Numbered from the stretch's first letter, positions 8,252 to 31,252 are shown. The stretch is DNA of 64,000 bases from Alphaproteobacteria bacterium (GCA_035509415.1 DATJLQ010000096.1:24919-88918), one strand, 5' to 3'. Made by a program: numbers and translations. The notes: generated from the letters alone by a model not told the origin.

Positions 8252-8264
8252 CGTTCGCCCCGCC

Positions 8265-9377: not shown

Positions 9378-9414
9378 TTTCCACCTCCATCTGTTTCAGG
9401 TTCTTTGGTTTTGG

Positions 9415-10242: not shown

Positions 10243-10245
10243 CTC

Positions 10246-11154
10246 CTACGCCTCGCCGCCGAAGAAGACTTCCTTGAGACCGATCCGGCGCCCCACCACG
10301 AGCAAGACGACGGCAATGATCGCCGTGAACGCGACGGCGAGGCATGCGCCATAGGACCAGTTGAACGTCGCCCCGAACTGGTCGGCGATCATCTCGCCGA
10401 ACATCAGCCCCGATGGCCCGCCGAGCAGCTTGGGCGTCACGTAGGAGCCCGCCGTGAGAATGAATACCAACATCCCGCCGCCGACCGTGCCCGAGGCGCT
10501 CAACGGAAAGATCACGCGCCAGAAGGTCTCGACCCGGCCGGCGCCCAGATCCGCCGAGGCCTCGAGCAGAGAGCGGTCGATGCGGTCGAGTGCCAGATAA
10601 ATCGGGATCACGGCGAACGGGAACCAGACATAGATCAGACCGAGGACGACCGAGAACTGGGTAAACAGGAAACGCTCCGACGGCGCGGACAGAATGCCGA
10701 GCCAGAGCAGGATGGAGTTCAGGACGCCGTTGGTGCCCAGGATCGGATACCAGGCGTAGGTGCGGATCAGGTAGCTGATCCAATAGGGCACCAGGATGAG
10801 CAGCAGGTAGAAATGGCGGTGGCGCGACTGGCGCGAGGCGACCCAGTACGCCATCGGGTAACCGAGCAAGAGAACGATCGCCGTCACCTCGATGCCGATC
10901 CAGATCGACTTGCCGAGGAGCGACGCGTCGGTGCTCGTGGTCAAGAGATGGCGGTAGTTCCCAAGCGTCGGCACCCAGACGATCCCGGCGAACGACGACT
11001 TGAAGAACGAGATGAACACGACGAGGAGGGCGGGGACGATCAGGCACGCGCATAGGAGGAGGCCCGCGGGCAGAGCGGAAAGGGACGGCCAACGCGTCGC
11101 CTGTCTCTCCTCCATTCGATCCGGCCTCGCCTCCTGGTTCGGCGCCGCGCGCAA
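10246..11154 (-). CDS. ABC transporter permease (PotB-like)
   Basis: Permease with EAA loop (LLEASADLGAGRVETFWRVIFP). Alternative start MEERQ at 11115. Confidence 0.85.
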   Translation of the reverse strand: MRAAPNQEARPDRMEERQATRWPSLSALPAGLLLCACLIVPALLVVFISFFKSSFAGIVWVPTLGNYRHLLTTSTDASLLGKSIWIGIEVTAIVLLLGYPMAYWVASRQSRHRHFYLLLILVPYWISYLIRTYAWYPILGTNGVLNSILLWLGILSAPSERFLFTQFSVVLGLIYVWFPFAVIPIYLALDRIDRSLLEASADLGAGRVETFWRVIFPLSASGTVGGGMLVFILTAGSYVTPKLLGGPSGLMFGEMIADQFGATFNWSYGACLAVAFTAIIAVVLLVVGRRIGLKEVFFGGEA

Positions 11155-11200
11155 GATTCTTGGTCGGTTTGGCGCGATTTTAAGCAGCCGCGGCGCTTGC

Positions 11201-11221
11201 GTGTTTCAAATGTTGAAACAC
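11201..11221. promoter_or_regulatory. perfect 9-3-9 inverted repeat GTGTTTCAA-ATG-TTGAAACAC followed by T-rich tract; candidate operator (or weak plus-strand hairpin)
   Basis: Read directly from the sequence. Lies in the AT-rich 290-bp gap between the IclR gene and the first ABC importer gene (the first gene of the importer operon on the minus strand). Confidence 0.35.
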
Positions 11222-11441
11222 CGTTTCTTTTTTAAAGTATCGATGATTTGCGCCCCGTCGTCAAGGTTCCCCGCCCCACGACGGCTTCGGTGCGATAGCG
11301 CGCGTCCGCGTCCGGCACTGGATTGCGCGCGTGGCCGAAATCGATCGATGCCGGCCGGGGGGTTCGGCGGCACGGCCGATGAAATTCGTCAATTTTTCCG
11401 ACGTGCCGGTTCCTCGCGCATGGAAAGCGCCGAGCTTCGGC

Positions 11442-12335
11442 TCAGCGTAGACCTGCGGGCGCGACAGTGCGCCCCTTGCGCGCGCCCGCTTTCGACCTCG
11501 AGGACGAGGGCACGCCACGCCGGCCGCTCGTCGCCCCCTCGCCGTCATGCCAACCCGCGAGCGCGCCGGCGGCTGCGCGGTTCGCGGGCGATGTGATGAA
11601 CCCGAGCTCGGCGGAGATTCGGGCCGCCGAAGCGATCACCAGCGGGCTCATGGCACGCAACGCCGATACCGGCAGCCGGTTCGACGGCCCGGACGCGCCG
11701 ACCGACGCCACCACGGTGCCGACGCGGTCGCGGATCGGCGCCGCCACGCCGGAAATGCCGATGCGCCATTCGCCGACGTTGATCGCATAGCCCTGCTGCC
11801 GAACCGTTTCCAATTCGCGGAGGAGCCGCGCGGGCGCGGTGATCGTGCGCGGCGTGAACGCCTTGAGGTTGCGCCCGACGGAATCGATGAAGGCGGGCGC
11901 CTGGAAGGCGAGAACGCATTTCCCGGTCGAGCCGCAATAAAGGGGGACGCGGCCGCCGATCGGCGTGAAAATCCGCAGCGGGTGGGCACCGTCGGCTTTG
12001 TCGATGTATACGACGTCCTGGCCGTCGGGAATGGCGAGATGCACGGTCTCGCCGGTCTGCCCGGCCAGCTCGCGCAAGATGCCGGTCGCGATCCGGCTCA
12101 CGTCGCGCTGGGCAAGGATATGGGTGCCGATCTCCCACAGCTTCATGGTGAGCTCGTAGGTGCCGGCGCGGTCGCCCTGTTTGACGTAGCCGAGGCGCGC
12201 GAGCCCGTTCAGCAGGCGGTGAACGGTCGTCTTGTTGAGGCCGAGCGCCCGGGCCAACTCGCTGACCCCGTGCGGCGGCGGCTCCCTCGCGAGCGTCTCG
12301 ATCAATCTGATGGCCTTCGCGATGGTCTTCGACAA
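11442..12335 (-). CDS. IclR-family transcriptional regulator
   Basis: wHTH VSELARALGLNKTTVHRLLNGLARLGYV plus IclR effector domain. TTG start at 12335 is proposed, preceded by an AAAGGA Shine-Dalgarno, giving MSKTIAKAIRLIE.... The ATG at 12437 would overlap the upstream molybdoenzyme CDS by 65 nt. Confidence 0.75.
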   Translation of the reverse strand: MSKTIAKAIRLIETLAREPPPHGVSELARALGLNKTTVHRLLNGLARLGYVKQGDRAGTYELTMKLWEIGTHILAQRDVSRIATGILRELAGQTGETVHLAIPDGQDVVYIDKADGAHPLRIFTPIGGRVPLYCGSTGKCVLAFQAPAFIDSVGRNLKAFTPRTITAPARLLRELETVRQQGYAINVGEWRIGISGVAAPIRDRVGTVVASVGASGPSNRLPVSALRAMSPLVIASAARISAELGFITSPANRAAAGALAGWHDGEGATSGRRGVPSSSRSKAGARKGRTVAPAGLR

Positions 12336-12372
12336 TCGACCGGTCCTTTTGCCGCAGGGTGAGCGCGCCGCC

Positions 12373-14694
12373 CTAGGGGCGTCGGGGGCGTTGGACGATT
12401 TGGGGCGCCCTGTGCGCGTTGACCGCGGGAAGCGCACCCCGGTAGCGCTCGATCTCGACGAGACAACTCTCGGCGATCGTTGCCTGCGAGAGTTTCGATG
12501 CCCCTTTGTCGAGTGTCAAGACGTTGGGGTTTCCATGACACTCGAGCGTGCCGGGCACGCCCGGTTCCAAGGGATCGTACCAGGCGCCGGTCGAGAGCAT
12601 CGCGACCCCAGGGCGGATCTTGTCGGTCACGCGCGCACCCGCAAGACAGGCGCCGCGCGCGTTGAAGACGCGCACCACGTCGTTCTCCCGGATTCCGCGC
12701 GGCACCGCATCGGCAGCGCTGATCCAGATCGGCTCGCGGCCCTTGATCTTGCTCCGTTGGCTGACCCGGCCGCCGTCGAGCTGGCTATGGAGCCGGGTTT
12801 TCGGTTGGTTCGAGATCAAATGGAGCGGGTAGCGCTCGGCGAGCGCGCTGCCAAGCCATTCGACCGGCTCCATCCACACGGGGTGGCCCGGGCAGTCGTC
12901 GTAGTCGAAGCCGGCGATCCGCTCGGAAAAAATCTCGATTTTGCCCGACGGAGTCGCGAGCGGGTTCGCGTCCGGGTCGGCACGGAATGCGCCGAGCATG
13001 TCGAAAGGCGCTTCCGGCACCTCGATCTCGACATGCCCCGCAGCCCAGAACACTTCGAAGTCAGGAAGCTCGACCCCGCTCTCCGCCGCACCCTGCCGGG
13101 CGCGGTCGTAAAGATACCTGAGCCATTCCATCTCCGTGCGCCCTTCGGTGAAGGCGTCACGCACGCCGAGACGGCCGGCAAGCTCGGCTAGGATGTCGAA
13201 ATCGCTGCGCGACTCGCCCACCGGCTCGATCGCCTTTTGCATCGCGAGGACGAACCGATCGCGCGAGCAGGCGCCGATATCGTTGCGCTCAAGCGTCGTG
13301 GTCGCCGGGAGCACGATGTCGGCGTGACGCGCCGTCGCGGTCCACCAGGCTTCGTGCACGACGATCGTCTCCGGCCGGCGCCACGCCTCGATCAGCCGGT
13401 TGAGGTCCTGGTGATGGTGGAACGGGTTGCCGCCCGCCCAATAGACCATCCGGATATCCGGATAACGGCGCTTTTCGCCGTTGAAGTCGTACGGCTCGTT
13501 CGGATGCAGGAGCATATCCGTGAGGCGCGAGACGGGAATGTAGCTCCCGGTCTTGTTCGGCCCCGGCCGCAGGTTGGGGACCGGAAGGACGCGCCGAGGA
13601 TAGCCCATCGCCGCGGTCGAGCCGTAGCCGAAGCCGAAACCGCCGCCCGGCAGGCCGATCTGGCCCAGCATCGCCGCGAGCACGATCGTCATCCAATACG
13701 GCTGCTCGCCGTGATCGCAGCGCTGCACCGACCAGCTCGGCGCGACCATGGTTCGGCTCCGCGCCATGCGCCGCGCAAGATCGATGATCACGCCCGGCTC
13801 GAGCGCGGCGATCCGCCCGGCCCAATGGGCGTCCTTCGGAACTCCATCGGTCTCGCCCATGAGATAGGCGCGAAAGCGCTCGAACCCGACCGTATAGCGA
13901 TCGAGAAACGCGCGGTCGTGGAGATTCTCGCGCACCAAGCTGTGCGCCAGGCCGAGCATGATGGCCGCGTCGGTGTTCGGCCGCGCCGCGTGCCATTCCC
14001 CGTCCATGAACGCCGGCAGATCCTCGCGGATCGGGCTGATCACGACGGTCTTCAATCCGCGCTCGGTCAGCCGGCGTAGCCACCGCTCCGTCGCGTGGTC
14101 TCCGAGCCCGCCCGATTCGATCTGGACGTTCTTGAGCGGCACGCCGCCGAAAGAGACCAGAAGCTCGGTGTTGTCCGCCATGCTGTCATAGGTCGTGAGC
14201 GGTCCGTCGACCGAATCCAGATTGCCGATCACGTGCAGGAGGATCGTCATGCCCGCGCCGTAGCTGTAGTTCAGGATTTGTCGCGTGCAGCCGCCGAACG
14301 CGTCGAGGCACCGTTGCAGCTGGGTCCGCGCATGGTGGAACCGGCCCGCGCTCGCCCAACCGTACGAGCCGCCGAAAATGGACGCAGTGCCATGGTCGCG
14401 CTTGACGCGGACGAGCTCGGCCGCGACGAGATCGAGCGCCTCGTTCCAAGAGACAGGGACGAACGGGTCGACGCCCCGCTTGGCGCGATCGCTGTTCTTC
14501 CCGGCCTCGAGCCAGCCGGCGCGCACCATCGGCCGGGCAACGCGGTCGTCGGCATAGGCGACGTCGGCCATCGACTCGATGAGCGGCGACGGGGACGTGT
14601 CCTTCCGGAACGGCCGGATGCGCGCGATCCGGCCGCCCTCGACCTCGACTTCGTAAGCGCCCCAATGGGACGCGGTATGGACGGTCCGGGACAT
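12373..14694 (-). CDS. molybdopterin (bis-MGD) oxidoreductase, biotin-sulfoxide/TMAO/DMSO reductase (BisC/TorA) family, no Tat signal
   Basis: 773 aa; N-terminus MSRTVHTASHWGAYEVEVEGGRIARIRPF is typical of the cytoplasmic BisC type. Molybdopterin-binding domains throughout. Confidence 0.85.
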   Translation of the reverse strand: MSRTVHTASHWGAYEVEVEGGRIARIRPFRKDTSPSPLIESMADVAYADDRVARPMVRAGWLEAGKNSDRAKRGVDPFVPVSWNEALDLVAAELVRVKRDHGTASIFGGSYGWASAGRFHHARTQLQRCLDAFGGCTRQILNYSYGAGMTILLHVIGNLDSVDGPLTTYDSMADNTELLVSFGGVPLKNVQIESGGLGDHATERWLRRLTERGLKTVVISPIREDLPAFMDGEWHAARPNTDAAIMLGLAHSLVRENLHDRAFLDRYTVGFERFRAYLMGETDGVPKDAHWAGRIAALEPGVIIDLARRMARSRTMVAPSWSVQRCDHGEQPYWMTIVLAAMLGQIGLPGGGFGFGYGSTAAMGYPRRVLPVPNLRPGPNKTGSYIPVSRLTDMLLHPNEPYDFNGEKRRYPDIRMVYWAGGNPFHHHQDLNRLIEAWRRPETIVVHEAWWTATARHADIVLPATTTLERNDIGACSRDRFVLAMQKAIEPVGESRSDFDILAELAGRLGVRDAFTEGRTEMEWLRYLYDRARQGAAESGVELPDFEVFWAAGHVEIEVPEAPFDMLGAFRADPDANPLATPSGKIEIFSERIAGFDYDDCPGHPVWMEPVEWLGSALAERYPLHLISNQPKTRLHSQLDGGRVSQRSKIKGREPIWISAADAVPRGIRENDVVRVFNARGACLAGARVTDKIRPGVAMLSTGAWYDPLEPGVPGTLECHGNPNVLTLDKGASKLSQATIAESCLVEIERYRGALPAVNAHRAPQIVQRPRRP

Positions 14695-14805
14695 GGCTCC
14701 TCTCGGCGCGCCGTTCGAGTTCGGCGTTCAGAATGAGAAACGCCGTTTCGAAAATTTAGCAGCGCAGGGCGCGCGGTCAAGCGCCTTCGGAACCGGCGCT
14801 CCGGC

Positions 14806-16092
14806 TCAGCCCGCGAAATGGCGCGGCAGCCAGAGGGAGAGCGCCGGAATGTAGGTCACGAAGATGAGGGTCACGATGCCGAGGGCGATGAAGGGCGCCA
14901 GGGCCCTCACCTGACGCTCGAACGGGATGCCGGCCATGCGCGAGGCGACAAGCGCCGAGGCCCCCACCGGGGGCAGCAGCACGCCGATCTGGAGATTGAC
15001 GATCATCACGATGCCGAAATGGATCAGGTCGATGTTGAGGCTCTTGATCAGCGGCAGCAGGATCGAGCAGCCGAGCAGGATGGACGCGGCCGGCTCCAGG
15101 AACATTCCGAACGCCAGCAGCAGCAGGTTGATCATGAGCAGCGTCTCGTCGCGGCCGAAACCGTGCATGGACGATACAATCAGCTGAGGCAGCTGGCTGC
15201 GCGCGAGCACCCAGCTGAGAAGGCTGGAGCCGCCTATCAGGATCATCACCACGCCGGTATCGATCGCGGTACGGTGGAAGGCGCGTGCAAGCGCGCGCCA
15301 CGGCATGCGCCCGAGAATCAGGCCGCGTACCATCGCGTAGATCAGCGCGTAGAGCGCCGCGGCGCCGGCCGACTCGGTGAGCGTGAAGACGCCCCACACG
15401 ACGCCCGCGACGATGAGCGCCGGGATCACGAGGGCGGGCAACGCCCCGACGAGTGCCGCGGCCGCGCGCCCGAGACTGAAGGTCTCGCTGATCGAGCCGT
15501 AGCTGTGGCGCTTGGACAGCCAGAACGCCACCCCGCCGCACACGATCGAGAGGATCAATCCCGGCACGATGCCGGCGACGAAGAGCTGGGCCACCGACTG
15601 CTCCGCCGCGAAGCCGTAAAGGATCATGAGGATGCTCGGCGGAATGATCGGCCCGACGATGTTCGCGGCCGCCGTGACCGCGCCCGCGAAGGCGGGCGGA
15701 TAACCCTCCTCTATCATCGCCGGGATCATGATCGAGCCGACCGCGGCCGTGTCCGCGAGGCACGAGCCCGAGATGCCGGCGAAGAGTGTCGAGGCGGCGA
15801 CGTTGCCGATGGCGAGCGAGCCGCGCACATGGCCGATGAGCGAGGTCGCGAAGCGCACCAGCGCGCTGGTGACACCGCCCACCGTCATCAGATTCGCCAT
15901 CAACAGGAATAGCGGGATCGCCACCAGCGGAAACGAGTTGATGCCCTGGAAGAATTGCAGCGCCACGATCGACCAGCTCGGCACGCCGAGGAGCAGCAGG
16001 CCCAGCAGCGACGCGAGACCGATGCCGACGAACAGCGGCACCCCCAGCAGCAACAGGGCGACGAAGGTCGCGAGGGTGGCGACGCCGATCAC
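14806..16092 (-). CDS. dctM: TRAP transporter large permease subunit
   Basis: About 429-aa polytopic DctM-type protein. GTG start at 16092 overlaps the dctQ stop (GTGA). The upstream 137 aa of the track ORF are arginine-rich noise. Confidence 0.85.
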   Translation of the reverse strand: MIGVATLATFVALLLLGVPLFVGIGLASLLGLLLLGVPSWSIVALQFFQGINSFPLVAIPLFLLMANLMTVGGVTSALVRFATSLIGHVRGSLAIGNVAASTLFAGISGSCLADTAAVGSIMIPAMIEEGYPPAFAGAVTAAANIVGPIIPPSILMILYGFAAEQSVAQLFVAGIVPGLILSIVCGGVAFWLSKRHSYGSISETFSLGRAAAALVGALPALVIPALIVAGVVWGVFTLTESAGAAALYALIYAMVRGLILGRMPWRALARAFHRTAIDTGVVMILIGGSSLLSWVLARSQLPQLIVSSMHGFGRDETLLMINLLLLAFGMFLEPAASILLGCSILLPLIKSLNIDLIHFGIVMIVNLQIGVLLPPVGASALVASRMAGIPFERQVRALAPFIALGIVTLIFVTYIPALSLWLPRHFAG

Positions 16093-16568
16093 GCTTCCTC
16101 GCCCCCGAACCAGATGGCGGCGATCTGCTCGAGGGAGAAGAGCACCATGAGCGCGCCGGCGATGACCGAGACCGAGTAGAACTGCGCCCAGCTCACGTCG
16201 ATCGGCAATCCTTCCACCTGGGTCGTGCGCGTGACCGCCATCAGCGTGAAGCCCGCATAGCCGAGCATGAGCGCGAACAGCAGCGACGCGAGGTGACAGA
16301 AGGTCATCACGCACTTCCTGGCCGTGCCGCGCAGCATCGTCCAGAAGAAGCGCACCTCCAGATTCTCGTCGCGGCGCACCGCCGCCGTCGCGGCGAGGAA
16401 AGTGAGCCAGGCGAGGGCGCAGGAGGCGACGGTGTCGGACCAAGTGGTCGCGTCGTCGAACACGTAGCGCATGACGACTTGAACCGACACCGAGACGAGG
16501 CATACCGCCACCAGCGCCGCGCTCACCGCGTCGAGCGTCCGCTCGATGCCCTTGAAGAGCCGGCGCAT
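16089..16568 (-). CDS. dctQ: TRAP transporter small permease subunit
   Basis: 159 aa, four-TM DctQ-like protein (MRRLFKGIERTLDAV...). The long track ORF 16089..18065 is an antisense read-through. Confidence 0.8.
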   Translation of the reverse strand: MRRLFKGIERTLDAVSAALVAVCLVSVSVQVVMRYVFDDATTWSDTVASCALAWLTFLAATAAVRRDENLEVRFFWTMLRGTARKCVMTFCHLASLLFALMLGYAGFTLMAVTRTTQVEGLPIDVSWAQFYSVSVIAGALMVLFSLEQIAAIWFGGEEA

Positions 16569-16594: not shown

Positions 16595-17572
16595 CTACCG
16601 GCCGCTGAGGATTTGCGCCCACTTCCAGACGTCGGGCAGCTCCGTCCTGAGCGGCTCCTCCATGGCGCGCATCTGCTCGACCGAGACGGCGGGCTCGACG
16701 AACTTGACGCCCTTGGCCTTGAACGCGGCGATCAGCTTTGCCTCGTCGGCCTTGGTCGTATCGCCGTAGTATTTCGACGCCTCCTCGGCCGCGCGGATGA
16801 AAGCCGCCTTGCTCTTGGGCTTGAGACTGTCGACGAAGGGGCCGTAGGTCAGGAACATCTTGGGCGACAGCACATGCCCGGTCATCACCACGGTCTTCGC
16901 CACGTCCTCGATCGAGAGCGCTGCCATGTCGGTGATCGCGCCTTCGATGCCCTCGACCACGTTCTGCTGCATGGCCGAGAAGGTTTCCGCGATGTTCATC
17001 GGCACCGGACTCAGGCCGAGCAGCTTCAGCTGATCGACGTAGATCGCGGTGCCAGGCACGCGAATCTTCATGCCCTTGAGGTCGGCGAGAGATTTCGCGT
17101 CGCGCGTCGTGTAGATCCAGCGCGGCACGTTCCAGGACGGCGCGAGCATCAGGTACCCGCTGCGCTTTTCGACCTCGGCGACGAGGGCCTTGCCGCCCGG
17201 TCCCCGCCACGCCTTGAGCATCTCGTCCGCGTTCTTGAACAGGAACGGCCACGAATTCGCCGTCACGATCGGGACCTGCTGGCCGAGCGCATCGGGTTGG
17301 ATGAACATGACGTTGACCAGGCCGACCTTCATCTGGGTCGCCATGGTGGCGAAGGTGCCGAGCTGGCTGTTGAAGTAGAGCTGCACCTGGAGCTCGCCGT
17401 CGCTGTACGTCTCGGCGCGCTTCTTGAAGAGCTCGAGCGTGCGTCCTACCACGCTCGTGGCGCTGCTCGTATCGCCGACGATCACCTTCGTGGCCGCGTG
17501 CGAAGCGCTGGCGAGCGCCATACTCGCCGCGAGGCTGAGCGCGAACAGTATCCGATTGACGGTCATGGGCAT
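16595..17572 (-). CDS. dctP: TRAP transporter periplasmic solute-binding protein
   Basis: Signal peptide MPMTVNRILFALSLAASMALASASHA plus DctP fold. Confidence 0.85.
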   Translation of the reverse strand: MPMTVNRILFALSLAASMALASASHAATKVIVGDTSSATSVVGRTLELFKKRAETYSDGELQVQLYFNSQLGTFATMATQMKVGLVNVMFIQPDALGQQVPIVTANSWPFLFKNADEMLKAWRGPGGKALVAEVEKRSGYLMLAPSWNVPRWIYTTRDAKSLADLKGMKIRVPGTAIYVDQLKLLGLSPVPMNIAETFSAMQQNVVEGIEGAITDMAALSIEDVAKTVVMTGHVLSPKMFLTYGPFVDSLKPKSKAAFIRAAEEASKYYGDTTKADEAKLIAAFKAKGVKFVEPAVSVEQMRAMEEPLRTELPDVWKWAQILSGR

Positions 17573-17653: not shown

Positions 17654-18193
17654 CTAGGCGGCCGCGATGCGGCCCTCGGCGCGCAGCTTGGCGATGCGCT
17701 GCGCCACCATCGGCCTCCAGCCGCCGAGCGCAATGGTCTCGAGCAGGGTCGCGGGCAGCGGCTCGTAGCGGTGCTTGGTGCCGCGCGTGAGGTTCTCGAA
17801 CGAGCCGGTCGCGAAATCGACCCGGAGCTCGTCGCCGGTCTCGCATTCCTTCGTGACGCCGTCGCAATGGGGCAGGATCGGCAGGCCCGCGTTGACCGCG
17901 TTGCGATACGAGCCGCGCGGGATCGATTCCACGACCGCGCCGAGGCTGAGTGCCGCGATCCCGAGCAGGCCCTGGATGTGCGGGTTGCCCTGGGCGAAGC
18001 GCCGGCCGGCGACGACGATGTCGCGGGGCGAAACCTTCTTCGGGAAATCCGGGTCGATCCCGCACATGCAGAACTCGCGCAAGATCTCGGGCCGCGTCTC
18101 GCGCTGGAGCGCGAATTCCTTCTTGGTGAGATCGGCATCGACCGCGAGGTTGTCGCCGAATTTCCAGCAGCGTCCGTGATAAATCCAGTCCAT
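17654..18193 (-). CDS. aconitase-family hydro-lyase small subunit (LeuD-like)
   Basis: 179 aa, GDNLAVD...GRRFAQG swivel-domain motifs. ATG at 18193 sits 9 nt after the large-subunit stop. Confidence 0.8.
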   Translation of the reverse strand: MDWIYHGRCWKFGDNLAVDADLTKKEFALQRETRPEILREFCMCGIDPDFPKKVSPRDIVVAGRRFAQGNPHIQGLLGIAALSLGAVVESIPRGSYRNAVNAGLPILPHCDGVTKECETGDELRVDFATGSFENLTRGTKHRYEPLPATLLETIALGGWRPMVAQRIAKLRAEGRIAAA

Positions 18194-18201
18194 GGCTTCC
18201 C

Positions 18202-19464
18202 TCAGAGATATTTGCGTGGATCGCTGATCTCGCCCGCGACGGCGGAGGCGGCGACCGTGAAGGGCGAGGCGAGATAGACGTCCGCCTTGGTGGTGCCGAG
18301 GCGGCCCGGATCGTTGCGCGTGCCCGTGTTGATCGAGACTTCGCCGGGCGCGATGGGCGCGATGCGCCCGCCGGCGCACGGGCCGCAGCCGGGTGCGGTC
18401 ATCACGGCGCCGCTCTCGAGGAAGATGTTAAGCAGCCCCTCCTGCCCCGCGCGCTGGGCGATTTCCTGGGTCGCGGGCGTGATGAAGAGGCGCACCTCGG
18501 GATGGATCTTGCGCCCGCGCAGGATCCGCGCCGCGTCGCGCATATCCTCGATCGAGCCGTTGGCGCAGGAGCCGATGAAGGCATGGTTCACGCGCACGCC
18601 CGCGACGCTCGACACGCCGACCACGTTGTCGGGCCGCGGCGGCGCCGCGACCTGCGGCTCCATGAGGCCGAGATCGTAGTCGTAGACGGCCTTGAACGTG
18701 GCATCCGGATCGCTCTTCTCGGCCGCGATCGGCCCCTTGAGCCGCGGCGCCAGCCAGGCCTTCGTGACCTCGTCGACCTCGACCAGGGCCGACTTGGCGC
18801 CCATCTCGAGCGGGCTGTTGCAGAGCGTCATGCGGCCCGCGAAGTTCACGTCCTTGAGCGCGGGCCCGCCATACTCGACCACCGCGTAATCGAGATTGTC
18901 CTCGCCGATGTCGACGATCATGCGCTGGGACACGTCGCGGATGGCCATGCCCGGCTTGAGGGCGCCCGTAAGATTGACCCGCACCGTCTCCGGGACGCGG
19001 ATCCAGACCGAGCCGCAGGCGAGCACCTCGGGGATTTCGAACACCACCGCGATGCCGAGGGCGCCGACCGCGCCGTAATTGGTGACGTGGGTGTCGTAGG
19101 CGAGGACGAACATGCCGGGGCGGACGAAGCCCATCTCCATCGGGAAGACGTGGCCGTGGCCGCCGCGGCCGGCGTCGAAGAAGCGCTCGATGCCGTATTT
19201 CTTCACGATCTCGCGCACCGCCTTCTGGCGCTCCGCCGACTGGGGACTGAGCGCCACCGGTTCGTGGTCGGTCGAGATCAGCACGCGCTTGGGATCGTAG
19301 AGCGCGGTCACGCCGAGCTCCTTGAGCGCCTTGTCGAAATTGACCACGTACCAGTCGTGGACCGTCATCAGATCCGGCTCCGGATAGACGGTCTCGCCCG
19401 CCTTGACCGGGCGGCCCGCCGCCCGCGACAGGATCTTTTCCGTGAGTGTCTGTCCCATATCCAT
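18202..19464 (-). CDS. aconitase-family hydro-lyase large subunit (LeuC-like, archaeal-type approx 420 aa)
   Basis: Fe-S cluster cysteines (GSCANGS, ...PGCGPCAGG) and the aconitase catalytic domain. Confidence 0.85.
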   Translation of the reverse strand: MDMGQTLTEKILSRAAGRPVKAGETVYPEPDLMTVHDWYVVNFDKALKELGVTALYDPKRVLISTDHEPVALSPQSAERQKAVREIVKKYGIERFFDAGRGGHGHVFPMEMGFVRPGMFVLAYDTHVTNYGAVGALGIAVVFEIPEVLACGSVWIRVPETVRVNLTGALKPGMAIRDVSQRMIVDIGEDNLDYAVVEYGGPALKDVNFAGRMTLCNSPLEMGAKSALVEVDEVTKAWLAPRLKGPIAAEKSDPDATFKAVYDYDLGLMEPQVAAPPRPDNVVGVSSVAGVRVNHAFIGSCANGSIEDMRDAARILRGRKIHPEVRLFITPATQEIAQRAGQEGLLNIFLESGAVMTAPGCGPCAGGRIAPIAPGEVSINTGTRNDPGRLGTTKADVYLASPFTVAASAVAGEISDPRKYL

Positions 19465-19497
19465 TCCTCTCTTCGATCGGGCGCGCCGCCCGAATTC

Positions 19498-20079
19498 TCA
19501 GTAGCCCAGCACCTGCTTGAAGGTCTCGCCGCGGCGCAGACGCTCCTCGCGCTCGGCATCGAGGTGCGCCTTCGCGACCGCCTTCTCGGCGACCTCCGCC
19601 GCGCGCTCGGCCTGGACGATCACCACCCCATCCTCGTCGCCGAACACAAGATCGCCCGGCTTCACCGGCACGTCCGCGATCGAGATCGGCACCTGGGTCC
19701 AGCCAGGATGGGATTTGACCGTGCCGCGCACGTTGACGCCCGCGGCATAGATCGGGAAGCGCAGCGCCCGGATCTGCGCCATATCGCGCACCGCGGCGTT
19801 GGTGACGCAGCCCGCGATCTTTTTCGCGACGCACGCGGTGGTCGAGGTGCCGCCCCAGATCGTCGCCCTGTCCGTGGCGCCGGCATCGAGCACGATCACG
19901 CTCCCCGGCGGCGCCTCGTCGATCGCGCGGAACACGACCAGATTGTCGCCCGGCATCGCCTTTACCGTGAACGCCGGCCCGGCGAGCCGCACGCCGTCGA
20001 CCAGGAGACGGATCGGCGGGCCGACATCGCCCCATTTCCCCGCCGCCTCGTAGATGGTCGCCGTCGGCAGCGCCGCCAT
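19498..20079 (-). CDS. RraA-family protein (HMG/CHA aldolase / oxaloacetate decarboxylase-like)
   Basis: MAALPTATIYEAAGKWGDV...VLDAGATDRATIWGG... has the RraA/MenG-like fold. Start taken at the ATG at 20079. The track ORF's 82-aa N-terminal extension is low-complexity. Confidence 0.75.
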   Translation of the reverse strand: MAALPTATIYEAAGKWGDVGPPIRLLVDGVRLAGPAFTVKAMPGDNLVVFRAIDEAPPGSVIVLDAGATDRATIWGGTSTTACVAKKIAGCVTNAAVRDMAQIRALRFPIYAAGVNVRGTVKSHPGWTQVPISIADVPVKPGDLVFGDEDGVVIVQAERAAEVAEKAVAKAHLDAEREERLRRGETFKQVLGY

Positions 20080-20126
20080 GATGGCGAGCGGCGAGCCGGG
20101 GCCCGATGCCGATGTCTTCGACGTGC

Positions 20127-20927
20127 TCACGATATGCGCTCCTCCTCCGCCATGCGCCGCGCCACGGTCGCGGCAGCCGTCTTGATCACCTCGCCAAGGT
20201 CCGCGAACCGCTCGCGGGTTACCTGGCTGGTCGCAAATCCGAGGGAGAGCACGCCAAGCAGCTTTCCGTCGGGACCCCGTACCGGCGCCGCGACCGAGCC
20301 CACGCCTTGGGTGTGCTCTTCCCAATTCACCGAATAGCCGCGCGTCACGACGGCACGCAGGGCCGCCTTCAACCTCGGCAAGCTCGTGATCGTGTGCGGC
20401 GTACGCGCCGGCATGCCGGTGCGCCCGATCATCGCGTCGACCTCGAGCGCAGACAGGGTCGAAAGCGCCGCATGGCCGGTCGCGGAGCTGTGCACCGTGA
20501 GCTTCTCGCCGACAGGAATGCTGTATTTGAGCCGGCCCGGCGCCTCGACGGAATGAAGAATCACCATGCGGTCGTCCTGCAGCGCCGAGAGATAGGCGGT
20601 AACACCCTCGTCGGCGACCACGCGCTCCAGGATCGGGGCCGCGATGCGCCGAATGCGATCGCCGCCGGCGAACAAACCGCCGACCCGCGCAACTTCGGTG
20701 CCCGGCTGATAGCGCCTGGTCTTGGGATCGCGCACGACATAGCCGTGCATCTCGAGCGCCTGGATGAACCGGAGCGTGCTGGTCTTGGAGAGTGCCAGCG
20801 CCCGGCTCGCCTCGACCACGCTGAGGGTGCGGCGTTCGTCGCTAAAGAGCGAAAGCAGCGTGAGCGTGCGGCTCGCGCTCAGGGAGAACTCGGGCTTGCC
20901 GTCGGCGGATGCGGCCCTGCTGATCAT
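20127..20927 (-). CDS. IclR-family transcriptional regulator
   Basis: HTH LSVVEASRALALSKTSTLRFIQALEMHGYV plus IclR C-terminal domain. Confidence 0.85.
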   Translation of the reverse strand: MISRAASADGKPEFSLSASRTLTLLSLFSDERRTLSVVEASRALALSKTSTLRFIQALEMHGYVVRDPKTRRYQPGTEVARVGGLFAGGDRIRRIAAPILERVVADEGVTAYLSALQDDRMVILHSVEAPGRLKYSIPVGEKLTVHSSATGHAALSTLSALEVDAMIGRTGMPARTPHTITSLPRLKAALRAVVTRGYSVNWEEHTQGVGSVAAPVRGPDGKLLGVLSLGFATSQVTRERFADLGEVIKTAAATVARRMAEEERIS

Positions 20928-20976: not shown

Positions 20977-21237
20977 TTTATAGTCCTGAATTAGGATAAT
21001 AAAGAGCGTCACCGAGCGCGTCAACAGCACCTTGCAGGCCGTCGCCTGCGGCGCGAAATTCGGGAAATACTTCAGTGCGATGAACAATCGGCTATGATGG
21101 TGCGCAGGTGCCGAACCGCGGCAAGGCGCTGCCGGAACCAAGGGGCTGGAGATACCCCTCGGGGTCGACCGCGCGCGCCGTGGCGACGCGACCGTGCCAT
21201 CGTTCGCACCCAATTCCCGCCTCCAAAAGGGAGCGTC

Positions 21238-22974
21238 ATGCCGAAGCGAGCGCGCACCAGGACGGCCTTCGGGAAGGACGTGAACTCGGTCACCAAGGCG
21301 GTCGACGTTCTGCGCGCCTTCATCGACGGCCAGGAAAGCTGGGGCGTGCGCGAGCTCGCCAACGCCCTCGGCCAGCCGGGGAGTTCGACCCATCGCGTGC
21401 TGCAAATCCTGCGGCGCGAGGGTTTCGTCGAATGGGACGCGGAGTCGCGCAAGTATGAAACGGGCATGGAATTTTTCCGCTGGTGGGCGATCCTCGGCGG
21501 ACGCCTCAAGGTCGCCGAGGTCGCGCGTCCATTGATGAGCGAGCTTGCGGGCGAGATCGGCGAGACCTGCCTCCTCGGCCTCTACAAGGCGGGCGACCAT
21601 CGCCACGCCTACGTCGCCGAGGCCCTGGCCCACCAAGGCTCGTCCTTCAACGCGCTGATCGGAAATTACGCGCCGCTTTGGAGCTCCGCAGGCGGCCTCT
21701 CGATCCTGGCGCTTCTTCCCGAGCCCGCGCGCCGGGCCGTATTCAAGGCGCGCGCGGCGACCGGCCCGCGCAACCCGCCCCGGTCCCTCGAAGGCCATCT
21801 CGCTGCGGTGCGCGCGGCCGGCTACGGCGTGATGCTCTCATCGGACGACGACGCCCCCGTCACCGTCGGCGCCGCGGTGACCGACGCGCACGGCAACCCC
21901 GTCGGCAGCCTCACGATCGCGGCCCCGCGCGGACGCTACGCCGAGCCCGCGCTGCGCGAGATCGGCGCGCGCGTCTCGAGCTATGCCGGTCGCCTGTCGC
22001 GCATGATCGGCGCCCAGATGCTGGGTGGCGCCGGAGGAATCGGCAGCTGGACGCTCGGCATCGACGTGATCGCGCGCGTGATTCAGCGCGAGATCCCCGG
22101 CATCGGCTCGACCATCTGGAACGCGAGCGGCGATCAGGCGCTTCAGGACCTCCAGAACGGCCGCGGCGGCTACTGCTTCGCCGTCGCGGGGAGCTTGTGG
22201 AGCGCCTATCGCGGCGAGGCGCCGTTCACGCACCCCCATGGCCAGCTGCGCGCCATGTGCAGCCTGTTTCCGATTTTTCTGCATATCGTCACGCGCCGGA
22301 ACAGCGGGATCGGAAGCTTCCGCGATCTGAAGGGCAAGCGCGTCTCGGCCGGCGAAGCGGACTTCACGACCGCGCGGGTAGTGGCCGAGCTGATGCGCCG
22401 CGCCGGCATTCTCGAGCGCGGAAGGGCGGCCGCACGGACGCTCGTCTATCTCAACTACGCCGAGGCGACGCGCGAGTTCGCCGCCGGCAAGCTCGACGTC
22501 ATCATCTCCCTGACCGCCCTTGGCGACCCGGCCTACCGCAAGCTCGCGCGCTCGTTCGACCTGCGCCTCATTCCTTTGGATGCAGCGTCCGCCGGCGCCT
22601 TCGTCGCGCGCCATTCGGCCTACGAGACGGGCGTCATTCCGGCGGCAACCTACGCCGGTGCCGACGAACCCACCGAGACCTTGGCCGTACCCACCGTCCT
22701 CGTCACGACCGCCGAGCGCAGCGACGACGAGGTCTACGCTGCGACGCGCGCGATCTATCGCGAGCGCGACAGGATCGCGGCGGCGCTCGGCGCGCCTGAG
22801 ACGCTCAAGCCCCCGTACCTGTTCCGCGGCATCGACGTGCCGCTGCACCCGGGTGCCGAGCGCTTTTGGCGCGAGCAGGGATTGATCGGACCGCCCGCGC
22901 TGGTCGCGCCGGCTGCCGCAGCGCGGCGCACGGCGCCCGCCGTCGAGCCGCGCCGGTCGAGTTCCCGGCGTTGA
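21238..22974 (+). CDS. IclR-family regulator fused in-frame to a TAXI-family (TRAP-associated) periplasmic-binding-protein-like domain
   Basis: aa 1-257: IclR wHTH (VRELANALGQPGSSTHRVLQILRREGFV) plus effector domain. aa about 262-578: TAXI hallmarks (GIGSWTLGIDVIARVIQREIPGIGSTIWNASGDQALQDLQNGRGGYCFAVAGSLWSAYRGE ... PLHPGAERFWREQG), with no signal peptide. Strong Shine-Dalgarno AAAGGGAG before the ATG at 21238. Single uninterrupted frame. Confidence 0.75.
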   Translation: MPKRARTRTAFGKDVNSVTKAVDVLRAFIDGQESWGVRELANALGQPGSSTHRVLQILRREGFVEWDAESRKYETGMEFFRWWAILGGRLKVAEVARPLMSELAGEIGETCLLGLYKAGDHRHAYVAEALAHQGSSFNALIGNYAPLWSSAGGLSILALLPEPARRAVFKARAATGPRNPPRSLEGHLAAVRAAGYGVMLSSDDDAPVTVGAAVTDAHGNPVGSLTIAAPRGRYAEPALREIGARVSSYAGRLSRMIGAQMLGGAGGIGSWTLGIDVIARVIQREIPGIGSTIWNASGDQALQDLQNGRGGYCFAVAGSLWSAYRGEAPFTHPHGQLRAMCSLFPIFLHIVTRRNSGIGSFRDLKGKRVSAGEADFTTARVVAELMRRAGILERGRAAARTLVYLNYAEATREFAAGKLDVIISLTALGDPAYRKLARSFDLRLIPLDAASAGAFVARHSAYETGVIPAATYAGADEPTETLAVPTVLVTTAERSDDEVYAATRAIYRERDRIAAALGAPETLKPPYLFRGIDVPLHPGAERFWREQGLIGPPALVAPAAAARRTAPAVEPRRSSSRR

Positions 22975-22993: not shown

Positions 22994-24187
<1,194 letters not shown>

Positions 24188-24202
24188 TCGAACGCCGCAC
24201 GC

Positions 24203-25336
24203 CTAAGCGGCTTTGACTTCGCCCCACGCCTGGATCCACGCGTTCATGTTGTTCGGCCAGCTGTAGGGATAGCGCGCGATATTCCTGGTGATCGCGTCGA
24301 AGCCCATCTTCTCCCGCTCCGCGGGCGTGAAGGCGTCGAGCGCGCCCGTGGTGACCGGGCCATAGCTCGATTCCTTGGCGAGGGCGACGCCGTATTCGGG
24401 CGAAAGCATCGCGTTCACGACCGATTCGGCGAGCGGGGCCTTGGACGAATCCTTCGGAATGAACGCCGACTGGTTCCAGATCAGGATGCCCTCCTTGGGC
24501 CAGGCATTGGTGATCGGCAAGTTCTGCTTCAGAAGCGCCGCGCGCATCGAGAGCCAACCGTACATCGCCCACACCTCGCCGCTCGACATCAGATTTACCG
24601 CCTCGGCGAACTGGGACCACATGGTGCGGAAGTTCTTCTTCTTCGAGATCAGGAATTTCTTCACTTCCGCGAGGTCGGCATCCGACATGGTCGCGGGGTC
24701 CTTGATGCCGAGGGTTAGGGCCGCGACCACGATGCCGCCATACGGATCGTCGCGCATCGCGGTCTTGCCCTTGTACTTGTCGTCGAACAGCACGTTCCAC
24801 GTCTGGGTCGATGCCGCATCCTCGGGAATGTGCTCCTTGTTGTAAAGTGGCGAATCGAATCCCCAGAAGATCGGGATCATGTAGGTCTTGCCGTCGCGCA
24901 CCTGGATCTGCTCGGCGAACAGCGACTGCAGGTTCTTCTCGTTCGGCACCTTGCTCAGGTCGAACGGCCGCACTTTCTCGTCGCCCGCATGCGCCCCGAG
25001 GATCGGCCCCTTCACGAAGTCCGTCACGCTGATCATGAGATCGTAGCGCGACGTCCCGCCGGGCGCGAGCAGCTTGGCAATCGTATCGGTCGGCGAGACG
25101 TAGGGCACGTTGTCGACCTTGACGCCCGAGAGCTTCTCCTCGACCGCGCGCGCGCCGGGCGGGATGACCACGCCGGACATCACACCCGTGATCGTCTCCA
25201 TGCCCCAAGCGGACGTGCTTCCCGCCGCCCCGGTTAGCGCGAGCGCTCCCGCAGCACCCGAAAGTGCCAGGAATTCACGGCGATTAAGACCGGACTCGAA
25301 GCCGGGCCCGTATTTTCCCAAGTTTGTTTTGCTCAT
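24203..25336 (-). CDS. ABC transporter periplasmic substrate-binding protein (PotD/F-like), Tat signal
   Basis: MSKTNLGKYGPGFESGLNRREFLALSGAAGALALTGAAG. Paralogous to the SBP at 8265..9377, sharing the KKFLISKKKNFR block. Confidence 0.85.
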   Translation of the reverse strand: MSKTNLGKYGPGFESGLNRREFLALSGAAGALALTGAAGSTSAWGMETITGVMSGVVIPPGARAVEEKLSGVKVDNVPYVSPTDTIAKLLAPGGTSRYDLMISVTDFVKGPILGAHAGDEKVRPFDLSKVPNEKNLQSLFAEQIQVRDGKTYMIPIFWGFDSPLYNKEHIPEDAASTQTWNVLFDDKYKGKTAMRDDPYGGIVVAALTLGIKDPATMSDADLAEVKKFLISKKKNFRTMWSQFAEAVNLMSSGEVWAMYGWLSMRAALLKQNLPITNAWPKEGILIWNQSAFIPKDSSKAPLAESVVNAMLSPEYGVALAKESSYGPVTTGALDAFTPAEREKMGFDAITRNIARYPYSWPNNMNAWIQAWGEVKAA

Positions 25337-25370
25337 GATCGACTCCTCTGTTGAATGTTCATCCCCGTTC

Positions 25371-26207
25371 TCATCGATCCGTCGCGGGGTGCGCGTCGTC
25401 GCGCGTTCGGCGCGAAACCACGAGGCCAATCAAAGACGTTGTGGCCGAAATCAGCATGATGATCACCGCCATCGCCGGAAGATCGGGCGTCAACTGCTCG
25501 ACGATCATCGACCAGAACATCACCGGGATGGTCCGGTCGTAACCGGTCACGAACAGCGTGCGCACGAATTCGTCGAACGACAGACTGAAGGAGAACAGGA
25601 GCGTCGCGATGATCGCCGGACGCACGATCGGCAGCACGACGTGCCAAAAGACCTCGATCGGGCGCGCTCCGAGGTCCATCGCCGCTTCCTCCACGGCGCG
25701 GTCGAAGCGGTGCAGCCGCGGATACAGCGTGAGGAAGGCGAAGGGGAGGACCCAATCGACGTGCGCGATCAGCACCGTCGTCCACAGCGACGGCGGCACG
25801 CCCAGATAGCCGAAGAACATCAGGAGCATGATGCCGCCCACGATGCCCGGCATCACGATCGGCGCCAGGACCAGGTTGAACAAGGCGCCCTTGAACCGGA
25901 ACTCGTGCCGGAATCCCATGGCGAGGAAAAGTGCGAGGGCGGTCGAGATGACGGCGGCGAGGACGCCCACGGCCAGACTGTGGGCCAGCGCGGTCAGGAA
26001 TTCCGGCGTCTTGAACACTTTCGCGTACCAATCGGCGGTGAAGCGCCGGAACGGGAATCCGATGGTCTCCGAATCGTTGAACGACAGCACGACGATCATC
26101 ACGAGCGGCGCGTATAGCAGAACGTAGAACACGCCGGCGTAAATCCACAAAGCGAGGCGATAAGGCGAGACGCGCCCCCGCCTGGGTCCGGTCGCGGCCG
26201 CGATCAT
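25371..26207 (-). CDS. ABC transporter permease (PotC-like)
   Basis: Start MIAAATGP at 26207 overlaps the upstream permease stop (ATGA). EAA loop VEEAAMDLGARPIEVFWHVVLP. Confidence 0.85.
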   Translation of the reverse strand: MIAAATGPRRGRVSPYRLALWIYAGVFYVLLYAPLVMIVVLSFNDSETIGFPFRRFTADWYAKVFKTPEFLTALAHSLAVGVLAAVISTALALFLAMGFRHEFRFKGALFNLVLAPIVMPGIVGGIMLLMFFGYLGVPPSLWTTVLIAHVDWVLPFAFLTLYPRLHRFDRAVEEAAMDLGARPIEVFWHVVLPIVRPAIIATLLFSFSLSFDEFVRTLFVTGYDRTIPVMFWSMIVEQLTPDLPAMAVIIMLISATTSLIGLVVSRRTRDDAHPATDR

Positions 26208-27136
26208 CGACGGCCTCCCGAAACGACCTGCTGCAGCCCGATCCAGCGCCCGAACACGATGAGAAGCAGCAGCACGACCCCGAACAGCACGACGGACAGC
26301 GCGGCGCCGAACGCCCAATTGTTGGTCGAGATGTATTGAATCGCGATCATGTTGCTGTAGAGGATGCCCGACGTCCCGCCCAGAAGCTGCGGCGTCACGT
26401 AGGCGCTGACCGAAAGGAGAAAGACCATGAGCGAGCCCGACAGCACGCCGGGCCAGCTGAGCGGAAGAATGACGCGCCAGAAGATCCAAAACGGCCGCGC
26501 GCCGAGGTCCGCCGCCGCCTCGATCAGCCGCGGGTCGATCTTGTCGATCGAGAGATAGATCGGCAGGGTCATGAACAGCGTATAGACGTAGATCAGGCCG
26601 ATATAGACCGCGCCGCTATCGTAGAGCAGCCAGCCGATCGGGTGGTCGATGAGCCCGAGGTAAAGCAAAAACTGATTGATCGCGCCCGTGGTCCCGAGGA
26701 TGGGCAGCCAAACGAAGGTGCGCACCACGTAGCTGGTCCAGAACGGCAGGAACAGCAGCAGCACGAACCCCGTCTTGGCGGTGCCCCGGAGGGTCGCGAG
26801 GAGATAGGCGATCGGATACGAGATCGCGAGCGAGATCAGGGTCGTGACGAACGATACCCATAGGGTCTTGACGAGAAGGTTGCGGTAGAACGGCGTCGCC
26901 AAGGCCTGGGCGTAGTTGCCGAACTGGAAAGCGGGCGTCGTGCCGAAGATCGTCGAGGTCCAGAACGACATCGCGATCGCGAAGCCGAACGGAACGAGGA
27001 CGAAGACCGCGAGCCAGATCAGCCCCGGCGAGAGCATCAAAAAGGCGGTGCGGCGGGCGCGGCGACGCGCGGCGCCGGTCGCCGCGGTCGGCAACGTGAG
27101 CGACACATGTCCCGTATCCGCCGCCATCGACGCCAT
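26204..27136 (-). CDS. ABC transporter permease (PotB-like)
   Basis: Polytopic permease, IEAAADLGARPFWIFWRVILP. Confidence 0.85.
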   Translation of the reverse strand: MASMAADTGHVSLTLPTAATGAARRRARRTAFLMLSPGLIWLAVFVLVPFGFAIAMSFWTSTIFGTTPAFQFGNYAQALATPFYRNLLVKTLWVSFVTTLISLAISYPIAYLLATLRGTAKTGFVLLLFLPFWTSYVVRTFVWLPILGTTGAINQFLLYLGLIDHPIGWLLYDSGAVYIGLIYVYTLFMTLPIYLSIDKIDPRLIEAAADLGARPFWIFWRVILPLSWPGVLSGSLMVFLLSVSAYVTPQLLGGTSGILYSNMIAIQYISTNNWAFGAALSVVLFGVVLLLLIVFGRWIGLQQVVSGGRR

Positions 27137-27177
27137 CCCTCACCCACCCATCCTTCGCACTCCGATCATTGGGTTCG

Positions 27178-28995: not shown

Positions 28996-28998
28996 CCT

Positions 28999-31140: not shown

Positions 31141-31167
31141 GTTCAATATTGTTGAACAGCACTGTTC
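31141..31167. promoter_or_regulatory. two overlapping inverted repeats GTTCAA-TATTG-TTGAAC and GAACAG-CA-CTGTTC at the divergent hyuA / Rieske promoter; candidate operator
   Basis: Read from the sequence. Starts immediately at the minus-strand hyuA start codon, about 90 bp upstream of the Rieske alpha ATG. The half-site resembles the palindrome at 11201. Confidence 0.35.
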
Positions 31168-31252
31168 CATAAGCCAGGATGGGACGCAAGCGCGAATCGC
31201 GCCATGTCGGAACCGCCGGCGGCCGGCACGGCGCGTGGAAGGAGGGGCGCAC

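Follow-up and report, generated by a model that had tools for sequence, protein, structure and literature searches.

A conserved RraA-LeuC-LeuD operon of Proteobacteria with an unusual LeuD-like subunit and a possible role in the catabolism of ring-opened acids

INTRODUCTION

In the protocatechuate 4,5-cleavage and gallate degradation pathways (LigI-LigJ-LigK and GalB-GalC), a ring hydrolase is followed by a hydratase and then by an RraA-fold class II aldolase that releases pyruvate and oxaloacetate. Nicotinate fermentation by Eubacterium barkeri likewise brings an N-heterocycle pathway to its end with a two-subunit LeuCD-type hydro-lyase and a C-C lyase (DmdAB and Dml). Here, we describe a locus that appears to follow the same logic, found in a 64,000-nucleotide stretch of DNA (GCA_035509415.1 DATJLQ010000096.1:24919-88918; referred to as the window) from an Alphaproteobacteria bacterium. 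It consists of adjacent genes for an RraA-like protein and for the LeuC-like and LeuD-like subunits of a putative hydro-lyase (the triad), accompanied by a regulator and a TRAP transporter. An earlier reading of the window, made from the sequence alone (the sequence-only reading), had proposed that these genes hydrate an unsaturated di- or tricarboxylate, possibly maleate, ahead of aldol cleavage or decarboxylation.

In comparison with the systems above, the putative hydratase of the window is an aconitase-family Fe-S enzyme, whereas LigJ is an amidohydrolase and GalB is of the PIG-L type, and the ring openers found with it are HyuAB, MBL-fold or alpha/beta hydrolases instead of LigI. The likeness to DmdAB-Dml (DmdAB compared by description only) extends to Falsiroseomonas and to locus L036, where a LeuCD of this family stands with an ICL/PEPM lyase that has the KKCGH signature. 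The lyase of the window, in contrast, has the RraA fold, no ICL/PEPM gene lies beside the pair, and the host is an aerobic-type proteobacterium. Another catabolic, LeuCD-like two-subunit hydratase acting on a cis-enoate is HbzIJ, the maleate hydratase of the gentisate pathway of Pseudomonas alcaligenes, which we compare by description only, as given in a later paper that cites it (Liu et al. 2015, cited in PMC12294151). By sequence, the best matches of the LeuCD-like pair are the isopropylmalate/citramalate isomerase and the homoaconitase of Methanocaldococcus jannaschii (PDB 4KP1/4NQY/3VBA and 4KP2/2PKP), which share the subunit sizes (~420 and ~170 aa), the cluster cysteines and the catalytic residues of the large subunit, but differ in the small-subunit motif (GSSRE there, QGNPH here), in the substrate loop and in the catabolic context of the pair studied here. 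The HyuAB proteins of the window, in turn, share their domains with caprolactamase, 5-oxoprolinase and N-methylhydantoinase, with scores far under the equivalog cut-offs. An aconitase-family hydro-lyase that works with a lyase in catabolism is known; the unusual motif feature and the set of partners are distinctive of the locus described here. To our knowledge, HbzIJ has not been reported with an RraA-like or HyuAB partner, and our literature search found no description of the triad, of the small-subunit type that we call "His-type" below, or of a LeuCD-type step in 2,5-dihydroxypyridine pathways.

RESULTS AND DISCUSSION

Conservation of the triad

To evaluate the conservation of the triad, genomes were scanned with one genome per species, which gave 80 loci, 56 of them with a LeuC at least 60% identical to that of the window. 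RraA, LeuC and LeuD were adjacent and co-directional in 42 of these 56 loci, an arrangement far beyond chance, and in the neighbor-joining tree RraA linkage is scattered over the whole LeuC clade. The carriers are alpha-, beta- and gammaproteobacteria, including Hyphomicrobiales, Pseudolabrys, Aquabacter, Rhodospirillales, Defluviicoccus, Polaromonas, other Burkholderiales and one gammaproteobacterium. The complete string of IclR regulator, triad and DctPQM transporter is repeated in loci L001 to L009 (L007 belongs to Aquabacter sp. CN5-332), where the IclR orthologues (46 to 66% identical) hold the same position, and the synteny of DctP is kept in these loci as well as in L017 and L020. The plasmid collection contained no triad orthologues (best match, 42% identical). 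The triad is a conserved and uncharacterised bacterial operon, and the regulator and transporter beside it agree with the catabolic setting that had been suggested.

In the window, the interval from 17654 to 20079 is delimited exactly by the LeuD-like stop codon and an ATG of the RraA-like gene. The RraA-like gene can also start at a GTG (20130), preceded by the ribosome-binding site GGAGGAG, so that its product has ~193 to 210 aa depending on the start. The stop codon of the IclR gene overlaps this GTG, the LeuC-like and LeuD-like genes are separated by 8 nucleotides, and within the operon a promoter-like site was found only upstream of IclR. The TRAP transporter is complete, with DctP, DctQ and DctM side by side. 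Since the GC content of the window is ~68%, genes were called by codon-position GC and confirmed with profile searches; third-position GC was 0.82 to 0.91 in all the listed operon genes and in the BisC gene downstream, the coding pattern expected at the GC content of the window. The coordinates and the minus-strand gene list of the sequence-only reading (IclR, RraA-like, LeuC/LeuD-like, DctPQM, BisC) proved exact by gene calls and profiles.

The LeuC/LeuD-like pair does not belong to leucine biosynthesis

A protein that NCBI lists for an alphaproteobacterial metagenome-assembled genome matches the LeuC-like protein with 100% identity. The only models passed by the LeuC-like protein are those of broad subfamilies (NF001614, 412 bits against a cut-off of 385, and TIGR01343). 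Every LeuC or homoaconitase equivalog was missed by a wide margin, including TIGR02083 (LEU2, 343 against 611) and TIGR00170 (leuC, 181 against 560), and its closest solved relatives are the homoaconitase and isopropylmalate/citramalate isomerase of M. jannaschii (E 4e-88). It retains the cluster cysteines Cys298, Cys358 and Cys361 together with D64-H65, D122-T-H124, R381 and R386. Of these, the three cysteines, D64-H65, H124, R381 and R386 are invariant and correspond to the cluster ligands and the Asp-His, His and Arg residues of the aconitase large domain. Judging from these residues and models, it is predicted to be the large subunit of an aconitase-family [4Fe-4S] hydro-lyase. Neither the window nor the 80 related loci have leuA, leuB or lys genes as neighbors of the pair. 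The neighbors are regulators, transporters and hydrolases, with regulators and transporters flanking LeuCD at all the loci examined. The failure of the equivalog models, the absence of leuA and leuB neighbors and the replacement of the GSSRE motif (see below) together set the pair apart from leucine biosynthesis, in agreement with the earlier claim that the pair is not a canonical isopropylmalate isomerase.

The His-type small subunit

The small subunit is much more divergent. The LeuD-like protein had no Pfam match at 1e-3, did not reach the leuD equivalog TIGR02084 (83 against 246) and, in a difference from DmdB, remained under the cut-off of the LeuD/DmdB family model (TIGR02087, 92 bits against 109). 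Where characterised members have GCGSSREHA (G-x-G-S-S-R-E-H-A), it carries AQGNPHIQG, with Q68-G-N-P-H72 in the place of GSSRE. The canonical motif holds the catalytic serine base and the substrate-binding arginine, and both residues, Ser642 and Arg644 in pig aconitase, are essential in that enzyme; here, Asn70 aligns with the serine and His72 with the arginine. The substrate-recognition loop is also changed, from DTDAILPARYL in the archaeal-type enzymes to AVDADLTKKEFALQRE. The QGNPH replacement shows no variation among the 62 small subunits that adjoin LeuC homologues in the 80 loci.

Relatives of the small subunit were collected with a whole-library HMMER search, and 129 full-length representatives were compared. 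Histidine occupies the Arg644-equivalent position in 74 of them and the canonical motif is found in only 49; the 19 closest representatives all carry the histidine and lack Ser-Ser-Arg. Because the 74 have His and no Ser-Ser-Arg, they point to a probable large, unrecognised "His-type" branch of LeuD-like proteins. A PDB search gave no solved structure of a His-type small subunit. With the catalytic serine and arginine missing, transferring the mechanism of LeuCD, DmdAB or maleate hydratase to this enzyme is unsafe.

The RraA-like protein and its substitutes

The LigK aldolase family provides the best characterised match of the RraA-like protein (PDB 3NOJ, an HMG/CHA aldolase), which is nearer to the CHA/HMG aldolases (PRK09262, E 4e-41) than to RraA proper (E 3e-21). 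Unlike LigK, it does not reach the equivalogs of HMG/CHA aldolase (TIGR02798, 129 against 304; the PRK09262 CHA model NF006731, 141 against 179), and there are no lig or gal genes nearby. The equivalogs of RraA as the regulator of RNase E were not reached either (NF006875, 75.7 against 136; TIGR02998, 31 against 241). Its R115-D116 align with the catalytic Arg123 and the metal-binding Asp124 of 3NOJ, and all 43 clustered sequences, from the window protein and 42 orthologues, keep this dyad unchanged. RraA-family enzymes also decarboxylate oxaloacetate, an activity reflected in the name of PDB entry 3NOJ. Both the gene adjacency and the HMG/CHA aldolases as the closest family support the coupling of LeuCD to an RraA-family protein that had been proposed.

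In a sister clade (Falsiroseomonas and Salinarimonas, 55 to 57% identity), the RraA slot is taken by an ICL/PEPM-family protein, beside an IclR regulator and a TTT receptor, and the Falsiroseomonas protein retains the KKCGH lyase signature. The presence of another lyase family in this slot, next to a His-type LeuCD, argues for a logic of hydro-lyase plus C-C lyase. Variovorax sp. SRS16 and Azospirillum ramasamyi carry a paralogous cassette on plasmids, composed of an IclR regulator and, in this order, an MBL hydrolase (35% identical to the Polaromonas MBL protein described below), a FAD oxidoreductase, LeuC', a His-type LeuD' (GYGHPHYPP), ICL/PEPM and ABC genes. Taking the sister clade and this cassette together, a His-type LeuCD with a C-C lyase, often after a ring hydrolase, is a recurrent design. 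The cassette (L082, plasmid 4 of Variovorax sp. SRS16, 3487-14136, and L083, on the A. ramasamyi plasmid) appears to be uncharacterised; its ABC genes are of the Liv type and its ICL/PEPM protein has an altered KRCPCS loop. His-type LeuCD pairs (53% identical) also occur in Nitrospinota and unclassified metagenome-assembled genomes (L068 to L080) in a different conserved context, made up of acyl-CoA dehydrogenase, AtuA-like, Amdase/maleate-isomerase-family and HD-domain proteins, an EamA transporter and an acetyl/propionyl-CoA synthetase-like ligase. The inference drawn below covers the loci other than these Nitrospinota-type ones, which were set aside.

Ring-opening hydrolases and transporters around the triad

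All open reading frames of the loci were clustered and the clusters scanned with profiles to find the frequent neighbors. The most frequent partner of the triad, which the sequence-only reading did not mention, was HyuAB of the ATP-dependent lactamase type together with a PotD-type ABC importer; about half of the triad loci had HyuAB no more than 8 kb from the triad. In the window, this block (22994-31281) lies on the same strand as the triad operon, and the only gene between them is a divergent regulator in which an IclR domain is fused to a TAXI domain. The same fusion adjoins the triad in L019 and L025 and is possibly a ligand-sensing regulator that acts through its binding-protein domain.

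The adjacent HyuA and HyuB genes of the window encode full Hydantoinase_A and Hydantoinase_B domains (PF01968, PF05378, PF19278 and PF02538), with best scores against caprolactamase models and not acetophenone carboxylase, although far below the cut-off (512 and 231 against 1000). Orthologues of this pair ("type 1", HyuA 57 to 67% and HyuB 55 to 80% identical) are present in 19 loci, most of which also have an ABC binding protein 47 to 55% identical to that of the window; type 1 orthologues of HyuA and of HyuB each stand next to the triad in 17 loci. A second kind ("type 2", 29 to 46% identical) is found in 17 loci, usually directly downstream of LeuD, and is followed by a conserved alpha/beta hydrolase in 10 of them. 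An MBL-fold enzyme stands beside the triad in the Polaromonas loci L010, L011 and L013 and an Amidohydro_2 lactonase-like enzyme at L033 and L036, bringing to five the kinds of ring-opening hydrolase that flank the triad (HyuAB types 1 and 2, MBL fold, Amidohydro_2 and alpha/beta hydrolase). The transporters vary as well (TRAP, TTT, TAXI-TRAP, SSS and ABC), all being of carboxylate type except the PotD-type ABC. Binding proteins were also considered as indicators of the substrate and were uninformative, with DctP only at the ~30% level of similarity to SiaP and sugar-acid binders and the ABC protein weakly like PotD and PotF.

The window has a second pair in the reverse order, HyuB-HyuA (32768-37222, plus strand), 28 to 46% identical to the triad-side HyuAB pairs of other genomes, whose HyuB reaches 795 aa through an N-terminal extension. 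It adjoins the alpha subunit of a Rieske oxygenase (31016-32524) that is AndAc-like, below the cut-off.

A possible lower pathway

The account that we favor, while granting that it may well turn out otherwise, is that the operon is a lower-pathway cassette in which the Fe-S enzyme hydrates an unsaturated acid that arises by ring opening, after which cleavage or decarboxylation leads to pyruvate; the cassette would complete the degradation of lactams or N-heterocycles once their rings are open. The organic acid would be imported by the TRAP (or TTT) system. As another source, a cyclic precursor might enter through the PotD-type ABC importer and be opened by the ATP-dependent lactamase-type HyuAB, while in other genomes another hydrolase or NicX would yield the unsaturated acid. 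The LeuC/LeuD-like [4Fe-4S] hydro-lyase would then add water to the cis-enoate to give a hydroxy acid, with the large subunit supplying the cluster and acid catalysis on the hydroxyl and His72 of the small subunit replacing the missing serine base. Finally, the RraA-like protein, as a putative Mg2+/Mn2+ enzyme, would cleave a C-C bond: a 4-hydroxy-2-oxo acid would undergo retro-aldol cleavage, or an acid of the oxaloacetate type would undergo beta-decarboxylation, leaving pyruvate and a second central metabolite. The identities of the genes, the conserved triad with its partners and the changed motif are shown by our analysis; in which direction the reaction runs, what His72 does, which substrate is used and if RraA is an aldolase or a decarboxylase are inferred. 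Hydration of an oxo-enoate to a 4-hydroxy-2-oxo acid followed by aldol cleavage is the chemistry that fits RraA best, and it would rationalise the loss of the carboxylate-binding arginine, as the acidic C-H would adjoin a ketone. Formation of a D-malate-type product from maleate or an alkylmaleate is another candidate; it fits the NicX subclade (see below) and the ICL/PEPM partners, and RraA would then need an unlinked dehydrogenase.

A bolder version, which we regard as doubtful, holds that the His-type LeuCD, with G-N-P-H for G-S-S-R, is a large, unrecognised branch of the aconitase superfamily in which another residue serves as the base. Combined with lyases of the RraA-like or ICL/PEPM kind and with HyuAB as ATP-dependent ring opener, it would make up a so far undescribed lower pathway, independent of oxygen, for N-heterocycles of the lactam or pyridone type, the Fe-S hydratase standing in for LigJ/GalB or NicE.

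Several observations weigh against the lower-pathway account. The small subunit lacks the equivalents of Ser642 and Arg644 that are found in all characterised aconitase-family enzymes, so the chemistry could differ from hydration, and its homologues are uncharacterised. The DctP of the window is closer to sugar-acid and sialic-acid binders than to C4-dicarboxylate binders. HyuAB enzymes release amino acids from classical lactams, and the triad loci have no conserved enzyme for deamination. RraA is missing from about one quarter of the close loci and is therefore not obligatory. It may also not be isofunctional with ICL/PEPM, since RraA-type aldolases require a 2-oxo group and ICL/PEPM lyases act on malate-type acids.

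Alternative explanations

The maleate idea of the sequence-only reading can be stated as a maleate or alkylmaleate hydratase that forms D-malate, replacing NicE in a 2,5-dihydroxypyridine pathway, with RraA as an oxaloacetate decarboxylase acting after an unlinked D-malate dehydrogenase. We consider it unlikely, even though it gains from a subclade (L036, L040 and L041, without RraA) that falls, at ~65% identity, within the RraA-linked clade: in L036 and L040, LeuCD is immediately downstream of a NicX-like 2,5-dihydroxypyridine dioxygenase (PDB 7CN3, E 4e-103) with Rieske oxygenases alongside, L036 additionally has a Mo-hydroxylase, an alpha/beta hydrolase, Amidohydro_2 and an ICL/PEPM lyase, and no maleate isomerase was seen in either locus. 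The window too has a NicX-like gene and, as the earlier reading held, no detectable maleate-isomerase-like sequence, albeit with a distant query; there is a FAD oxidoreductase in the Variovorax cassette and a Zn-ADH-like gene beside LeuCD in Polaromonas loci, and oxaloacetate decarboxylation is an established activity of the RraA family. However, NicX is nearby in only 2 of the 80 loci, and the gene of the window, although it exists as claimed, is 36 kb from the triad on the opposite strand. D-malate is no substrate for RraA without the unlinked dehydrogenase, and no dehydrogenase is conserved with the triad across loci; HyuAB, the commonest partner, is left without a role; and the 2,5-dihydroxypyridine routes described in the literature all end in a maleamate amidase and a maleate isomerase. 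The suggested link to N-heterocycles gains indirect support from the NicX-adjacent LeuCD genes of two other genomes but not from the distant NicX cluster of the window itself, where the supposed NicD-like neighbors turned out to be HSL-type alpha/beta hydrolases of the esterase fold, not demonstrably NicD.

Still less probable in our view is a dehydratase acting on a 2,3-dihydroxy- or 3-hydroxy-2-amino-dicarboxylate (tartrate or 3-hydroxyaspartate type), whose enol- or imino-oxaloacetate product would be decarboxylated to pyruvate by RraA or ICL/PEPM. It would account for these two families sharing a slot, since both contain oxaloacetate decarboxylases. It would also make transporter and triad a complete route to pyruvate with no need for a dehydrogenase, and the loss of the Arg644 equivalent might suit a substrate with OH or NH3+ at that place. 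Yet HyuAB, MBL, Amidohydro_2 and NicX would have no part in such a route, the tartrate and hydroxyaspartate dehydratases that are known come from different families, and the KKCGH signature of the Falsiroseomonas ICL/PEPM protein suggests a C-C lyase, not a decarboxylase. As for an ordinary biosynthetic isomerase of the archaeal type, for isopropylmalate or homoaconitate, that has RraA as a chance neighbor, the M. jannaschii enzymes as best PDB matches and the two broad models passed are in its favor, but it is effectively refuted by the failed LEU2, leuC and leuD equivalogs, the missing GSSRE, the regulators and transporters found in place of leuA, leuB or lys neighbors and the linkage of RraA in 42 loci.

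Gene neighborhood in the window

Table 1 lists the features of the operon and its surroundings. The BisC gene had been counted as part of the unit, a claim that we reject: it has no homologue in the 80 loci, and the gap of 111 nucleotides between DctM and BisC holds a promoter-like site of its own, so it is best treated as a separate unit. Its product is a BisC/TorZ-family molybdopterin reductase of the cytoplasmic type, encoded directly downstream of DctM. The best profile match of the operon IclR protein, BhcR, was discarded as uninformative, as every IclR-type protein of the window scanned with NCBIfam matches BhcR far below the cut-off.

TABLE 1 Positions of the triad operon and associated features in the window
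Feature	Position	Strand	Evidence or remarks
BisC-family molybdenum S/N-oxide reductase	12373-14694	-	TIGR00509, 1030 bits
Sigma-70-like promoter match, DctM-BisC gap	14753-14780		Consensus match
DctM, TRAP large membrane subunit	14806-16092	-	PF06808, E 3e-96
DctQ, TRAP small membrane subunit	16089-16568	-	PF04290, E 9e-23
DctP, TRAP solute-binding subunit	16595-17572	-	PF03480, E 3e-51; NF037995, 143 bits (cut-off 50)
LeuD-like small subunit, 179 aa	17654-18193	-	PDB 3VBA, E 1e-35; TIGR02087 below cut-off
LeuC-like large subunit, 418 aa	18202-19458	-	PF00330, E 3e-76
RraA-like aldolase/decarboxylase	19498-20130 (GTG) or 19498-20079 (ATG)	-	PF03737, E 3e-40
IclR-family regulator, first operon gene	20127-20927	-	PF09339 and PF01614
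Sigma-70-like promoter match upstream of IclR	20996-21024	-	TTGACG-17-TATTAT, 10/12, consensus match only
IclR domain (HTH and IclR_C) fused to TAXI-type TRAP solute-binding domain	21094-22974	+	Profile searches
ABC ATPase, PotA-like	22994-24187	-	Profile searches
PotD/PotF-type periplasmic binding protein	24203-25429	-	Profile and homology searches
ABC permease 2 (start approximate)	25371-26258	-	tblastn, 52-65% identity to second permease of L021 and L022
ABC permease 1, PotD-type importer	26204-27136	-	PF00528; 51-66% identical to triad-side permeases of L021 and L022
HyuB-type, hydantoinase B, caprolactamase-beta-like, type 1	27178-28995	-	Profile scan
HyuA-type, hydantoinase A/oxoprolinase, caprolactamase-alpha-like, type 1	28999-31281	-	Profile scan
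NicX-like gene	56065-57144	+	PDB 7CN3, E 2.6e-63; 36 kb from the triad

The NicX-like gene belongs to an N-heterocycle-type cluster on the plus strand (46946-62176) that also holds CoxG, a Liv-type ABC importer, a 2Fe-2S subunit, two large subunits of xanthine-dehydrogenase-family Mo-hydroxylases (48012-50465 and 58366-61344) and the two HSL-type alpha/beta hydrolases. No maleamate amidase or maleate isomerase was recognised in this cluster. On the minus strand, two overlapping open reading frames (39229-41460, with a TPP-binding domain, and 37623-39440, with POR and DUF6537 domains) together resemble one protein of the indolepyruvate/2-oxoacid:ferredoxin oxidoreductase family, and their overlap of ~210 nucleotides in different frames suggests that the frame is shifted or that a start was placed wrongly. 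A second PotD-type ABC importer is located at 3690-11154 (minus strand; binding protein 8265-9377, permeases 9415-11154 and ATPase 4891-5997), beside an ADP-forming acyl-CoA synthetase (6050-8491), an acyl-CoA dehydrogenase (3690-5030) and an IclR gene (11442-12437).

Significance

Under the labels "3-isopropylmalate dehydratase" and "RraA family protein" given by annotation pipelines, a conserved catabolic module of soil, freshwater and marine Proteobacteria stays hidden. For most HyuAB paralogues no substrate is known, and their pairing with the triad provides a handle for finding the lactam or N-heterocycle on which they act. The same pairing also offers a way to test if 2,5-dihydroxypyridine pathways without a maleate isomerase end in a hydratase. 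Should catalysis prove possible with a His-type subunit that lacks the canonical serine, the aconitase family would have a wider mechanistic range than is known.

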